Below, piece by piece: positions 39,336 to 43,826 of a stretch of DNA of 64,000 bases. Source of the DNA: Candidatus Borrarchaeum weybense (GTDB taxonomy: Archaea; Asgardarchaeota; Sifarchaeia; Borrarchaeales; Borrarchaeaceae). Under the pieces are notes generated by a model. That model was not told the DNA's origin, made no database searches, and saw only the letters and a list, made by a program, of their open reading frames with translations. The position numbers were made by a program, and so were the translations under genes. How positions within the stretch are numbered: the stretch's first letter is position 1; each line of letters opens with the position of its first letter. Where the stretch lies: contig JAHQJS010000004.1 in the NCBI GenBank assembly GCA_019057385.1, positions 96,001-160,000 of the forward strand. The letters run 5' to 3'.

Positions 39336-40541
39336 TCATTTTATCTGGTCATTGAGAAAAACTTTAATAAACTCCTCACCAGTCAACTGCCCAAAACTAC
39401 CTCTGCTACAGGAGTCTTCAGTAAAAGTTTTGATATCGTCAGGTTCTTCATTTTTATCATAAATTAAGAAAGGAACTGGCTCACAGGTATGAGTTCTTAC
39501 ACTTATTGGGTTATAATGATCAGTTAGAACAGTTAATTTAATGTTATCCTTTAATTTCTTTAAAATTCTTCCAACAACCCTTTTATCAAAGTCTTCTATG
39601 CATTTGATTTTTAAATTCAAGTCTCCTTGATGAGATGCTTCGTCGGGTGCCTCAATATGAACGTAAACCAGGTCATAGGTTTCCAAGGCTTTTAGACATT
39701 CCTCTGCTTTTCCTTCGTAATTAGTATCATATAAGCCAGTCGCGCCGTCTACATCTATTACATTAAACCCCGCATAAATGCCTAATCCACGGATTAAATC
39801 AACAGCAGAAATCACAGCTCCTTTAATACCAAATTTTTCTTGAAACGTTTTCATAACGGGCTTTCTCCCAGGTGCCCACGGCCAGATCATATTTGCTGCA
39901 TTTTTGCCAGCGTTTACCCTCCTGATATTTACGGGATGATTCTCCAATACAGATCTTGATTGGATGATAAGGGTATTGAGAAGTTCTGCAGTTTTTTCGC
40001 CGCTGATATCCTTAGCTTTTACAAGTACATCCTTGAAAGGTGTTCCAGGGACATCATGAGGAGGTGTACATATTAAATCAGGGCTGTATTTGTGTTTTAA
40101 GATGAGGATGTGCCTGTAACTAACTCCTGGAAAAAATCTAATTTCCTCATTGCCAAGTTCTTTGGCGACTGCTTCGATTAACTCGTGGCTTTCTTCGCTT
40201 GAGATATGTCCTCCAGAATGGTTTTTAATTGTGTCATTTTCAACACAGATGGTATTACACCTAAAAGCAATATCTCTTTCATCAACGTTGATTCCCATTG
40301 CTGCAGCTTCTAGAACACCTCTTCCTTGAAAATTGCTTATGTCGTACCCCAGTATGGACATATTTGCAAGGGCGCTTTCTGGATCGGCTCCCTCAGGTAT
40401 TGTCACTAATTTACCACATTTCCCCATAGAGGCTAGTTTATCTAGGTTAGGAGTTTTTGCAACTTCTAAAGGTGTTTTATGTCCTAATTCCTCGATTGGA
40501 TAATCCCCCATGCCATCTCCGACAATTATTATATATTTCAT
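39336..40541 (-). CDS. apgM: Cofactor-independent phosphoglycerate mutase (ApgM) family protein
   Basis: GDGMGD, TPNLD, S..AN.SILGYD, HIEAPDEASH, TDH.PI...HT..PVP. Confidence 0.88.
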   Translation of the reverse strand: MKYIIIVGDGMGDYPIEELGHKTPLEVAKTPNLDKLASMGKCGKLVTIPEGADPESALANMSILGYDISNFQGRGVLEAAAMGINVDERDIAFRCNTICVENDTIKNHSGGHISSEESHELIEAVAKELGNEEIRFFPGVSYRHILILKHKYSPDLICTPPHDVPGTPFKDVLVKAKDISGEKTAELLNTLIIQSRSVLENHPVNIRRVNAGKNAANMIWPWAPGRKPVMKTFQEKFGIKGAVISAVDLIRGLGIYAGFNVIDVDGATGLYDTNYEGKAEECLKALETYDLVYVHIEAPDEASHQGDLNLKIKCIEDFDKRVVGRILKKLKDNIKLTVLTDHYNPISVRTHTCEPVPFLIYDKNEEPDDIKTFTEDSCSRGSFGQLTGEEFIKVFLNDQIK

Positions 40542-40727
40542 TATATCGCCACGATATAACTGCTTGAAAGGAGCTGTTATGTATTATTTGCATTTTCAGT
40601 TTAAAGCCCTTCATTTTCTAATCCATACAATTCTTAAATATTATTCTCCCGATGAGACTGATGAGAAAAGAATACAAATGATGCATAAGGTATTTAAGAA
40701 TCAATTTTTTAGATGATAGCGATCTAA

Positions 40728-41009
40728 ATGGCACAGATCAAAATAACTTATTTTTCAATGCTTAGAGAAGTGACTGGCAGGCATGAGGAGGGCTTAGAAG
40801 TCGGCAATACTGTTCGTTCTGCTCTTCAAAAACTATTTGAGAAATATGGCGAAAGGTTGCGTAAAATTATAATCAAGGAGCAAGATATTCCTCATGATTC
40901 AGTAATAATCGCTTTAAACGGCAAATCGATCAAATATCTAAAAGGGCTTGATACGATATTGAATGATGGGGACAAATTGACATTCTTCTTTGCAGCTGGA
41001 GGCGGGTGA
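40728..41009 (+). CDS. MoaD/ThiS/SAMP ubiquitin-like sulfur carrier
   Basis: LREVTG, LNG, L.DGD.....AAGGG C-terminus. Confidence 0.9.
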   Translation: MAQIKITYFSMLREVTGRHEEGLEVGNTVRSALQKLFEKYGERLRKIIIKEQDIPHDSVIIALNGKSIKYLKGLDTILNDGDKLTFFFAAGGG

Positions 41010-41124
41010 AATAAAATGGAGTCGGTCGTATTAGAAAAGTAAAAGTCAGCTAAGCAATTGCTTTACAAAAAGTTTAAAAGACTAAATCTACCACCGGGTA
41101 CCATCAGTTTCTGGGGCAAAATAC

Positions 41125-41211
41125 ATGATGATCTTAATGCAATCCACTTTCCTTACTAGTTCTTATCATGCTTTCTATAACTTCTTCCCAGGAACAACGA
41201 CGACGTACTAA
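41125..41211 (+). CDS. Putative threonine leader peptide (MMILMQSTFLTSSYHAFYNFFPGTTTTY)
   Basis: 28-codon ORF with ACA ACG ACG ACG one codon before the stop, followed by a hairpin and T-run, 97 nt upstream of aspartate kinase. Confidence 0.6.
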   Translation: MMILMQSTFLTSSYHAFYNFFPGTTTTY

Positions 41212-41308
41212 CGCACCCATCTTGTTTTGATGTGGCGTGTTGGAGGTTTTTGATGTCTATCTCTTATCAAAAATTATATCTATCAAAAAATAGAGGCTGA
41301 GGCAAATT

Positions 41309-42724
41309 ATGCGTGTTGTTATGAAATTTGGTGGCACTTCAATTGGTAATGGATCGAATTTCGGTCATGTAGCAAAAATCATCAATTCTTATGCAGAAAG
41401 TCATGAGACAATCGTATTGGTTTCAGCAATGGCAGGAGTTACCGATCAGTTAATTGACTGCGCAGAACGATCTCAAAAAGACATTACAAAAGAAGTTCTC
41501 AGAGATTTTATTCAAGAATTACTGAAAAAGCATCTAAAAGCGGCAGAAGAGAGTATCGATGATGAGTTCATCTTAAAAGAGGTCGAACAAAAACTTACTG
41601 AAACTCTCGAAGAATTAGAAAGAGTATTGATTGGCATCTCTTTATTAAAAGAGCTGAGTTCACAGGCTAAAGATAAAGTTATGTCTTTTGGTGAACGACT
41701 ATCGACACCAATTCTTTGGGGTGCAGTCAAGAACTTGAATATTCCTGTTGTGTATTTAACGGGATATGAGGCTGGAATTGTCACAGATGAACGCTTTGGA
41801 AACGCTCGACCTATTTGGAATATCTCCATTGAAAAAATTCAGAAAACTCTTGTGCCTCTTCTTGAACAGCGATACACAATAATTATTTCTGGTTTTATTG
41901 CAGGGACTGAAGATGGTCTTATCACAACTTTGGGACGTGGTGGTACTGATTTTTCTGCAGCGATAATTGGGACTTCCATTGAGGCTGATGAAATAATTTT
42001 TTGGAAAGAAACAACTGGTGTTTTAACTACAGACCCAAATCTTGAGCCAAATGCACAGACTATACCTTCTTTGTCGTATGCCGAAGCGATGGAACTTGCC
42101 TACTTTGGGGCGAAGATTCTCCATCCTAAATGCCTTCAACCTGTTATGGAGAGAGAAAACATTCTGGTTCGGGTCAAAAATACGTTTAAACCTGATGCAG
42201 AAGGATCAATAATAGTCCCCGCTACGGAACAGGTTGAAAATGTCGCAAAGGCAGTAAGTGTACTATTTAATGCTGGAATAATAGAGGTTGGAGGTGCTGA
42301 GATGATCGGCACCCCTGGAATTGCAGCTCATATATTTGGTGCCTTCGAGAAAGCTGACGCAAATGTTATAATGATTTCTCAAAGTAGTAGCGAAGCAAAC
42401 ATCTCTGTCGTTGTAAATCGCTCCGATATAAGAAAGACAGAAAAAGTGTTGAAAGAGACATTTGCTTATACAAACTATATCAAATATGTTCGAAGCGAAG
42501 ACGACATATGCGTCATTGGAGTAGTGGGAGAAGGTTTAAAGGGTACTCCTGGAGTTGCAGCTAAGGTTTTCCAAGCGGTTGCACAAAAAGGGGTAAACGT
42601 CCGGATGATTGCACAAGGATCATCAGAATTAAATATCAGTTTTGTTGTCAAGGAAAAAGACGGAGGCTTAGCTGTTAGGGCACTTCACGAGGCTTTCGAA
42701 TTAGGTGAGAAAATAATTAAGTGA
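41309..42724 (+). CDS. lysC: Aspartate kinase
   Basis: MKFGGTS, VSAM.GVTD, SFGERLS, TLGRGGTD, two ACT domains (MISQSSSE; MIAQGSSE). Confidence 0.95.
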   Translation: MRVVMKFGGTSIGNGSNFGHVAKIINSYAESHETIVLVSAMAGVTDQLIDCAERSQKDITKEVLRDFIQELLKKHLKAAEESIDDEFILKEVEQKLTETLEELERVLIGISLLKELSSQAKDKVMSFGERLSTPILWGAVKNLNIPVVYLTGYEAGIVTDERFGNARPIWNISIEKIQKTLVPLLEQRYTIIISGFIAGTEDGLITTLGRGGTDFSAAIIGTSIEADEIIFWKETTGVLTTDPNLEPNAQTIPSLSYAEAMELAYFGAKILHPKCLQPVMERENILVRVKNTFKPDAEGSIIVPATEQVENVAKAVSVLFNAGIIEVGGAEMIGTPGIAAHIFGAFEKADANVIMISQSSSEANISVVVNRSDIRKTEKVLKETFAYTNYIKYVRSEDDICVIGVVGEGLKGTPGVAAKVFQAVAQKGVNVRMIAQGSSELNISFVVKEKDGGLAVRALHEAFELGEKIIK

Positions 42725-42737
42725 CAAGGGATGTAAA

Positions 42738-43826
42738 ATGGATAAAATTAAAATAGGCGTATTAGGTGCTACGGGCGTTGTTGGACAAAACTATGTTCGA
42801 TTATTAGCAAACCATCCATGGTTTGAAATAGTAGACGTTGCCGCGTCACCCAGATCCGCTGGAAAGTCATATTATGACGCAGTAAAAAAGAAATGGCAGA
42901 TGATAGTTCCCATACCAGAAAACGTCAAGAATTTAATTGTCAGGGACGTGCAAGATTTTGACTCATTAAACCCGGAGATATCATTCGTATTCTCCGCAAT
43001 GACCCTTCCAAAAGAAGATACCAGACAAATTGAATTTGCGTATGCACATAAAGGAATTCCGGTAGTCAGTAATAGTTCAGCAAATAGACGGATAGAAGAC
43101 GTGCCGATGTTAATACCCGAAATTAATTATAAACACGTAGATATCATCCCAATCCAACAAAAGAACCGAGGGATTCTAAACGGCGGCTTTGTTGCTGTCA
43201 AGCCGAATTGTTCTCTTCAAAGTTACATGACTCCTCTTTATGCACTGGAACACGCTGGATATAAGATAGACAAAGTAATTATTACCACCTTACAAGCGAC
43301 ATCTGGTGCGGGTTATCCGGGTGTGCCTTCATTAGATATGGTGGATAATATTGTTCCTTATATTTCCGGTGAAGAAACTAAATCGGAAGAAGAACCGATG
43401 AAGATTCTAGGGAAAATTGGTGAGAAGGGAATTGAGAATTATGAAGATATTCAAATAAGTGTAACTTGTACCAGAGTCCCAGTTGTTGATGGTCACACCG
43501 CTTCAGTCAATGTTAAGTTCAAGGATAAAATCCCGACTCGTGAAGAGATTTTAAAAACCTGGAAGGAATTCAAGAGCTTACCTCAAGAGTTAAATCTACC
43601 TTTTGCACCAAAACAGCCAATCATATACATTGACAATGAAGACCGGCCACAACCAAGGAAGGACAGAGATAATGATAAAGGAATGGCAGTAACTGTGGGC
43701 CGACTTCGAAAGGATAATGTATTTGACTGGAAATTTGTAAGCCTAAGTCATAATACCGTAAGAGGAGCCGCTGGTGGCGGAATCTTAAACGCTGAATTGC
43801 TCAAAGCTAAAGGCTATATAAGATAG
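42738..43826 (+). CDS. asd: Aspartate-semialdehyde dehydrogenase
   Basis: LGATGVVG, KPNCS, QATSGAG, RVPVVDGH, HNTVRGAAG. Confidence 0.96.
   Translation: MDKIKIGVLGATGVVGQNYVRLLANHPWFEIVDVAASPRSAGKSYYDAVKKKWQMIVPIPENVKNLIVRDVQDFDSLNPEISFVFSAMTLPKEDTRQIEFAYAHKGIPVVSNSSANRRIEDVPMLIPEINYKHVDIIPIQQKNRGILNGGFVAVKPNCSLQSYMTPLYALEHAGYKIDKVIITTLQATSGAGYPGVPSLDMVDNIVPYISGEETKSEEEPMKILGKIGEKGIENYEDIQISVTCTRVPVVDGHTASVNVKFKDKIPTREEILKTWKEFKSLPQELNLPFAPKQPIIYIDNEDRPQPRKDRDNDKGMAVTVGRLRKDNVFDWKFVSLSHNTVRGAAGGGILNAELLKAKGYIR

Follow-up and report, generated by a model that had tools for sequence, protein, structure and literature searches.

Does the 5′ leader of an aspartate kinase operon in an archaeon sense threonine through the ribosome that translates a short upstream open reading frame (uORF)? 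The question is raised by a locus of Candidatus Borrarchaeum weybense that lies in a 64,000-nt stretch of contig JAHQJS010000004.1 (assembly GCA_019057385.1, positions 96,001 to 160,000 of the forward strand), which we refer to as the window and in whose numbering coordinates are given unless a contig is named. A sequence-only reading of this DNA had proposed a threonine leader peptide in an archaeon, placed upstream of the genes for aspartate kinase (ask) and aspartate-semialdehyde dehydrogenase (asd). That proposal is supported by our comparison, which found the uORF conserved across the genus and a paralogous copy of the leader in front of another threonine-pathway gene, thrB2, in one species. 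To the proposed explanation taken as a whole, a ribosome-mediated, cis-acting threonine sensor in the ask-asd 5′ leader, we give a probability of about 0.55.

We refer to the genome of the window as G000 and to four other species of the same genus, which were found by genome search (ask 76-91% identical), as G001 to G004. The six leader copies compared are five ask leaders (G000, G001, G002a, G003, and G004) and the thrB2 leader of G002 (G002b); the G001 copy is truncated by a contig end and the other five are complete. The evidence comes from one genus and five species, and amounts effectively to three or four independent sequences.

Leader ORF, hairpin and T tract upstream of ask-asd

The aspartate kinase gene is separated from a MoaD/ThiS-like gene (40728-41009) by a spacer of 299 nt. 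The product of ask (41309-42724, plus strand) has the Pfam domains AA_kinase and ACT and matches NCBIfam NF004938 with 590.9 bits, and that of asd (42738-43826, plus strand) has the Pfam domain Semialdhyde_dh and matches TIGR00978 with 398.7 bits. Translation of positions 41125-41211 of the plus strand gave a leader ORF of 28 codons, uORF1 (MMILMQSTFLTSSYHAFYNFFPGTTTTY, then the stop), which lies 97 nt 5′ of ask-asd and has 6 Thr at codon positions 8, 11, and 24-27, in agreement with the length and the Thr count given by the sequence-only reading. The candidate regulatory run at 41194-41205 (plus strand) comprises ACA ACG ACG ACG and is followed by TAC and TAA. These are indeed four consecutive Thr codons, as had been stated, but they do not stand directly before the stop, since a Tyr codon intervenes. 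ACG is the rarest Thr codon of G000 (13.6% of Thr codons), yet it makes up 17 of the 25 run codons across the copies.

A candidate promoter element that resembles a transcription factor B recognition element (BRE) with a TATA box (ACAAAAAGTTTAAAA) is located at 41065-41079 on the plus strand. The box is kept in the four complete ask leaders and in the thrB2 copy of G002 (AAAAAGTTTAAA), at 52-58 nt before the uORF ATG, and is presumably the promoter; transcription is predicted to start near 41100, about 25 nt past the TATA box. A perfect 12-nt palindrome, AAGCAATTGCTT (41052-41063), adjoins the 5′ side of this element in G000 and G004, is absent from G002 and G003, and may bind a transcription factor.

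Two helices characterize the leader RNA. Helix A pairs GTTTCTGGGG (41107-41116, plus strand) with TCCCAGGAAC (41186-41195, plus strand), and this pairing appears in both the minimum free energy structure and the RNAalifold consensus. Its 5′ strand includes a weak Shine-Dalgarno (SD)-like GGGG located 8 nt before the start of uORF1, and its 3′ strand overlaps the Phe-Pro-Gly codons and the first Thr codon. In five copies, 96% of the cells of helix A are paired, with one-sided changes only (U-G to C-G and G-C to G-U). Hairpin P (41208-41243, plus strand) and the T-rich segment GGTTTTTG (41245-41252) are present as the sequence-only reading described them. The hairpin has 14 pairs and one bulged U, with arms at 41208-41221 and 41229-41243 around a 7-nt loop (41222-41228), and its 5′ arm takes in the final base of the Tyr codon together with the TAA stop. 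Paired cells amount to 92.9% in five copies compared to 44-52% with slid partners, and compensatory changes occur at two pairs of hairpin P only; for both helices together the value is 94%, again against 44-52%. Hairpin energies range from -12 to -20 kcal/mol across the six copies, and the leader folds better than shuffled sequences (z -2.1 and -2.75).

The hairpin is followed, 3 nt past its foot, by a T5 tract (41247-41251, plus strand), which we regard as a candidate premature terminator and which has the at least five T in the transcribed strand that characterize archaeal oligo-T terminators. A T5-T6 tract occurs 2-3 nt after the hairpin foot in six of the six copies, being doubled in G003 and G002b, and its final U is 8-9 nt away from the foot, a spacing that matches intrinsic terminators. 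Tracts of T5 or longer are enriched after stop codons in G000 (34% versus 12-17% elsewhere). None of the 655 gene-end T5 tracts of this genome is preceded by 42 nt that fold at -15 kcal/mol or better, compared to -16.1 kcal/mol for the 42 nt before the tract in the ask leader. Hairpin P is therefore a special element, being stronger than the fold before any of these gene-end tracts. The Thr cluster is also rare: among intergenic short ORFs (sORFs) of 18-70 amino acids that begin with ATG, 8 of 4784 in G000 have at least four Thr in a 5-residue window. The combination of the Thr cluster of uORF1 with the hairpin is more than chance, because such sORFs are rare, no gene-end T5 tract has a comparable fold, and the element is conserved across the genus.

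Conservation, reuse and distribution of the leader

In the relatives, the check that the sequence-only reading had proposed was positive: uORF1 with its Thr run stands upstream of ask in all four other species, the truncated copy of G001 included, and the changes are of the coding type. The uORF1 frame is open over 28-30 codons in all six copies, and the variation in length results from two 3-nt indels that preserve it. In every complete copy the other two frames are interrupted by one to four stops; in the truncated copy of G001 they have 0 and 1. In the first 22 codons, the variable columns number 11, 13, and 11 at the three codon positions, and from this equal variation we conclude that the N-terminal part does not appear to be under selection at the protein level. 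In the last 8 codons the corresponding numbers are 2, 0, and 4. The Thr run reads T4, T5, or TTSTT in all six copies, AC being invariant and changes being confined to the wobble position; the middle codon inserted in one five-codon run encodes Ser (Thr-Thr-Ser-Thr-Thr, G002). The ending P/S-G-T-T-(T/S)-T-T-Y-stop is fixed, and G-T(4-5)-Y-stop is kept throughout. This pattern is the signature of a putative translated leader in which only the regulatory codons are under constraint.

Public DNA was also compared with the leader, as contigs of four runs, and yielded strain and species variants only. About 22 uORF1 substitutions are listed in these contigs, none of which gives a stop in our own translation, and the indels sum to 3 nt. 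The contigs probably come from the same species clusters and are thus not independent. On a low-depth contig of run X6 the Thr run appears as Thr-Thr-Met-Thr-Thr at 41196-41199 (…GGAACGACGATG…), so that the middle codon of the five-codon runs varies.

A BLAST search with the leader against the six genomes of the class gave one extra match, in G002 (L005:159-360, contig C30, minus strand). This divergent copy, G002b, lies on the other strand about 460 nt from the first and is 68% identical over 41067-41256, a segment reaching from the TATA box to slightly beyond the T tract. The promoter box and the hairpin of the ask copy recur in it, with CA in place of UG in the 5′ arm, which converts G-U and U-G pairs to A-U and C-G; its tail is T5-GGAGG-T5. 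The N-terminus of its uORF has diverged and the ending is the same (MIRVISSILNYTDSFCVLYSIFPGTTSTTY, then the stop). The 3′ half of this uORF is identical to that of the ask copy of G002, and the 5′ half and the tail differ. The relation of the two copies suggests a duplication followed by gene conversion.

G002b is found about 75 nt ahead of a TIGR02535 gene, which is the orthologue of gene 39336-40541 (minus strand) of the window. The product of the latter is annotated as a "proposed homoserine kinase" of the ThrB2 type (TIGR02535, 540.2 bits, cut-off 446.3) and has the Pfam domains PhosphMutase and Metalloenzyme, which are those of cofactor-independent phosphoglycerate mutase (PGM). It is probably the missing ThrB of the organism, because its TIGR02535 score is above the cut-off and the genome has three such PGM-like paralogues. 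PGM-like ThrB2 has been proposed as a non-orthologous replacement of ThrB and is needed for threonine-free growth in Bacteroides (PMC9026213). In the window itself, no Thr leader was found upstream of 39336-40541. One cassette hence precedes two separate threonine-pathway transcription units, ask-asd and, in G002, thrB2. Because the G002 duplicate spans exactly the region from promoter to U-tract and stands before the own ribosome-binding site (RBS) of another gene, the leader module appears to be a self-contained and portable unit, a property more in keeping with a terminator-based device than with one that must include the RBS of its target.

A second aspartate kinase gene, ask2 (G000 C4:164988-166226, minus strand), lies beyond the window and heads an operon with genes for 2-amino-3,7-dideoxy-D-threo-hept-6-ulosonate (ADH) synthase (TIGR01949, 336.9 bits) and for dehydroquinate synthase II (PF01959), which together form the archaeal route to aromatic amino acids from aspartate semialdehyde. 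The ask2 leader (G000 C4:166227-166530, equal to L029:2620-2923, minus strand), some 6 kb past the end of the window, encodes a candidate aromatic leader peptide. Its uORF of 52-56 codons is conserved among G000, G001, and G002, which differ by an in-frame indel of 12-15 nt, and 9-12 of the last 18 residues are Tyr, Phe, or Trp (for example, WSYTYYSFYSYFSFYFRF, then the stop); intergenic sORFs with at least nine aromatic residues in an 18-residue window number 19 of 4784 in G000. The stop codon of this uORF falls within a hairpin of about 13 bp in G001 and G002, where 2 nt, U4-U6, GGAGG, U6, and the ask2 start follow; the hairpin is weaker in G000. Apart from the RBS motif TGGAGGTTTTT(T)GATG, the Thr leader and the ask2 leader can be aligned only weakly and with gaps; the likeness of the two is architectural. 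With a Thr run at ask1-asd (ask1 being the ask of the window) and an aromatic-rich end at the ask2 operon, the two isozymes have two end-product-biased candidate leaders, each aspartokinase operon carrying the one that points toward its own end product.

We found no Thr leader in the regions upstream of hom and thrC, no His-run uORF at hisG, and no trpE in G000 with PF04715. The hisG leader region (G000 C4:1022700-1022860, minus strand) contains the complementary GC-rich segments GCGCGGGG ... CCCCGC. Eight other intergenic sORFs are strongly biased (His-, Met-, Trp-, Ile-, Thr-, or Phe-rich), and none precedes a gene of the cognate pathway; the genes behind them include a TnpB-like gene, an AAA ATPase, a CCG-domain protein, and an altronate dehydratase. 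Since these eight precede unrelated genes, the association between leader and pathway is specific.

The term "bacterial-style", which the sequence-only reading had applied to the leader, is adequate for its layout only. An Rfam cmscan of 40000-42000 with E up to 10 gave no match to Thr_leader (RF00506) or to any curated leader, riboswitch, or T-box, and the best 80 metagenome ask homologues (36-48% identity) lacked the leader, with no Thr-run uORF within 500 nt upstream other than a few chance matches. The same result, again with few chance matches, was obtained over 500 nt upstream for 24 ask loci of the phylum's other genera, and the only further genome of the class, which represents the sister family, had neither an ask nor a leader match. 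A pattern scan of genome contigs (GGAACRACR-gap-GATGTGGCG), which was too loose, returned only chance matches in unrelated bacteria. The absence of the leader from the best 80 ask homologues argues that it was not inherited with ask from bacteria. Five weak and unrelated matches were present below the Rfam threshold (four C/D snoRNA families and the nanos translational control element, E 3.3-9.7). A C/D-box small RNA, to which ATGATGA at 41125 and a weak SNORD81 match (E 7.9) pointed, was rejected, as the motif is ATGATCC in G002 and G003.

The gene content around these loci is archaeal, with a Vps4-type ATPase as a neighbour, asd and MoaD of the archaeal type, and enzymes of the 6-deoxy-5-ketofructose 1-phosphate (DKFP) pathway (control set: archaea only). 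The 16S rRNA of G000 ends in ...GATCACCTCCT, and SD motifs form a sharp peak 7-18 nt 5′ of the start codons. The small-subunit rRNA match in this genome (L251, G000 C5:332567-335232) extends over 2666 nt compared to the 1478 positions of the archaeal model; therefore, the 16S gene probably contains about 1.2 kb of inserted sequence, in the form of one or more introns. Two repeats were also noted in G000, a dispersed intergenic element of which one frame reads MSRWGMDDSGSQPTCRVVVH (about 12 listed places on C4, C5, and C7) and a second that reads AIHHHAEAVVLS (about 4 occurrences). Both look like dispersed short repeats or mobile elements.

Proposed ribosome-mediated control and its alternatives

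In the mechanism that we propose, a ribosome would load on uORF1 during transcription. The 3′ strand of helix A, once transcribed, would pair with the SD-like GGGG and disfavour later ribosome loading, thereby limiting uORF1 translation to a co-transcriptional window. When charged tRNA-Thr is plentiful, the ribosome would pass the four Thr codons, end at TAA, and leave, and hairpin P would fold; the polymerase would then stop at the T5 tract and yield a short leader transcript of about 150 nt, with little mRNA for ask-asd. If tRNA-Thr is in short supply, the ribosome would dwell on the ACG-rich run with a hungry Thr codon in its A site and cover some 12-15 nt past the P site, which correspond to the lower 5′ arm of hairpin P. 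The hairpin would thus be blocked from full folding, and the polymerase would read on into ask-asd. What the comparison shows are the sequence features themselves, their conservation, the coding-type change of uORF1, the second use of the module at a Thr-pathway gene, and an aromatic leader of similar build at ask2. From these we infer uORF translation, stalling, the transcription start, and hairpin-raised termination at the T tract, and the last of these is the least secure step. The core of the proposal, namely that a leader peptide with Thr codons controls downstream expression via ribosome occupancy, is likely to be right, and for premature termination as the controlled step the odds are close to even, at best. 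Lowered premature termination at the U-tract is nevertheless the most likely output of the sensor, and unmasking of an RBS is less likely.

Unmasking would correspond to translational attenuation of the erm/cat type, in which the same Thr sensor has translation initiation as its output: the P stem and/or the Thr segment would mask GGAGG-N6-AUG or the ask start, a stalled ribosome would free it, and the T tract would be merely the U-rich SD-to-AUG spacer that is usual in this organism. The region 41242-41300 (plus strand) indeed comprises a GGAGG (41242-41246), a 6-nt spacer, and uORF2 (41253-41300, 15 codons, MSISYQKLYLSKNRG, then the stop), whose TGA falls in the ribosome-binding region of ask. 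GGAGGT is a perfect match to the anti-SD sequence at the 16S 3′ end given above, the true start of ask2 uses the same GGAGGTTTTTTGATG as the uORF2 site, and the first two G of GGAGG lie within the 3′ arm of hairpin P in four of the six copies. In G003 and the G002 thrB2 leader, however, GGAGG is outside the hairpin, and the latter has no ATG at the spot equivalent to uORF2. Neither the peptide nor the frame of uORF2 is conserved, and a 1-nt deletion interrupts it on one metagenome contig. In the RNAalifold consensus the Thr codons are paired with AUGCGUGUUGUU of ask, and the duplex that the Thr segment can form with the main initiation region beats 97-99.7% of 768 genomic initiation regions in four of the six copies (G000, G001, G003, and G002 thrB2), whereas it is no better than background in G004 (p = 0.16) and G002a (p = 0.42). 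Partition-function folding constrained by a ribosome footprint on the Thr codons gave an opening of SD or AUG that was inconsistent among five leaders. Control of this type would require neither hairpin-dependent termination nor tight coupling, but on the full-length mRNA, where repeated translation of uORF1 would be needed, helix A would hide its SD. We judge this alternative unlikely.

Less probable still is a conserved translated uORF that does not sense threonine, acting as a constitutive damper or enhancer (by reinitiation or coupling) or encoding a small functional peptide, hydrophobic or aromatic, with the Thr run kept for reasons of RNA structure or of the peptide. The conserved frame is compatible with this idea, and for bacteria it has been proposed that leader genes raise translation by reinitiation (PMC4833913). 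Phe, Tyr, and Ser are also frequent in this leader and in that of ask2, and a pyrimidine-rich RNA could explain such a composition. Yet the equal variation of the N-terminal 22 codons at the three positions speaks against selection on a protein, the conserved part is exactly the run of end-product codons beside the stop, the module is reused before a second Thr-pathway gene, and at the aromatic-pathway operon the bias of the leader is toward aromatic codons. A structured non-coding leader (for instance one that binds a protein or a metabolite, or the 3′ portion of a small RNA) with an incidental frame would account for the two helices paired in all copies, the folding better than that of shuffles, and the hairpin with U-tail as the usual 3′ end of small RNAs, but it is very improbable given the lack of an Rfam match, the in-frame indels, the frame open in six copies, the wobble-only changes of the Thr codons, and a region between the strands of helix A that is poorly conserved as sequence and yet kept as an ORF.

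Several points weigh against the threonine sensor as we propose it. Termination by archaeal RNA polymerases occurs at oligo-T in the absence of hairpins, and in Pyrococcus a hairpin was without effect, although hairpins appeared to have a part in termination in a Methanothermobacter system (PMC2253867); the gene-end T tracts of G000 likewise have no hairpins. We found no conserved antiterminator or alternative partner for either arm of hairpin P across the copies. The sequence-only reading had paired CAACGACG in the Thr codons with CGTGTTG of the 3′ arm, and this duplex does reach -15.0 kcal/mol in G000, but only -8 to -12 kcal/mol elsewhere, and its changes are uncompensated. Covariation of the two helices is not significant among the five close sequences, as 96 of 500 shuffles reach the observed score; with two double changes only, the helices are conserved but unproven by covariation. 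The 5′ arm would equally be covered by a ribosome that pauses at the stop, and the difference between on and off would then rest on timing alone. The ask leaders also share a conserved second TATA-like box (41270-41280), which could be an extra, leader-independent ask promoter; TATA-like hexamers have no sharp positional peak upstream of G000 starts, which leaves the two candidate boxes unranked. Such a promoter would reduce the leader's share of control and would not explain the conservation of the leader. Transcription start, short leader RNA, and translation of uORF1 are, moreover, predictions. In addition, the element is confined to one genus, and leader peptides are not a general strategy of the organism, because hisG has no His leader.

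Relation to known leaders and significance for archaeal regulation

The features of the E. coli thr, his, trp, phe, leu, and ilv leaders and of pyrBI are established knowledge. The ask-asd leader has the same layout as thrL (RF00506), hisL, trpL, pheL, leuL, and ilvL, with a short leader ORF that has end-product codons near its end, a peptide that is otherwise unconserved, and a GC-rich hairpin with a U tract before the first gene, as in the enterobacterial leaders. The E. coli thr operon is headed by thrA, an aspartokinase gene, and ask-asd is likewise headed by an aspartokinase; operons of isozymes that have different leaders occur in both organisms (thrL and pheL in E. coli, ask1-asd and ask2 here). 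Compared to the enterobacterial leaders, we found no similarity by sequence or covariance model and no 2:3 antiterminator, and the host is an archaeon, with a TATA/BRE promoter and a polymerase that terminates at oligo-T without hairpins. The stop codon is inside the 5′ arm of the hairpin, whereas in E. coli leaders it is upstream of segment 2, and the leader RNA has an additional helix, by which its 5′ end is linked to the codons that immediately precede the Thr run.

The single-hairpin design is shared with E. coli pyrBI, where a leading ribosome blocks the terminator hairpin and there is no separate antiterminator. The signal in pyrBI is UTP-dependent polymerase pausing and its ORF runs through the terminator, in contrast to the tRNA-Thr supply proposed here and an ORF that ends at the hairpin foot. 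The leaders of ermC, cat, and cmlA have, as proposed here, a stall site in a leader ORF just 5′ of a hairpin, with an SD-like GGAGG on its 3′ side and then a start codon; they sense antibiotics via the nascent peptide and not tRNA charging, and the SD within the stem is missing from two of the six copies of our leader. Lineage-specific short ORFs rich in end-product codons have also been found in bacteria by comparative genomics, as has been described for the leaderless poly-Cys sORFs of mycobacteria (bioRxiv 10.1101/834739) and for the ilvB uORF of Corynebacterium, which controls the downstream operon (PMC10272879).

We put forward only tentatively, and at somewhat less than even odds, the conclusion that an archaeal genus uses true ribosome-mediated attenuation as a modular cassette of promoter, uORF, hairpin, and U-tract, with a codon run tuned to threonine or to aromatics, and that this is the first such case in Archaea and of independent origin. 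Transcription regulation in archaea is thought to act at promoter recruitment, and the archaeal polymerase resembles Pol II and Pol III. According to a 2021 study, no example of attenuation or antitermination was known in archaea (PMC8448881), and direct evidence for coupling in archaea is described as scarce (PMC13681488); the literature that we searched contained no archaeal example of leader-peptide attenuation.

If the proposal is true, transcription and translation are functionally coupled in this Asgard-like lineage, a hairpin in nascent RNA can decide whether an archaeal RNA polymerase terminates, and the leader is the first attenuation system described in Archaea, having arisen independently of the bacterial ones. 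With a Thr leader at ask1-asd and an aromatic leader at ask2 and the DKFP genes, the isozymes may divide control of the aspartate-semialdehyde branch point, which parallels the three aspartokinases of E. coli. A portable leader-peptide cassette would make archaeal attenuation and coupling concretely testable in the lineage closest to eukaryotes, and would likewise test whether hairpins in nascent RNA modulate oligo-T termination by the archaeal polymerase.

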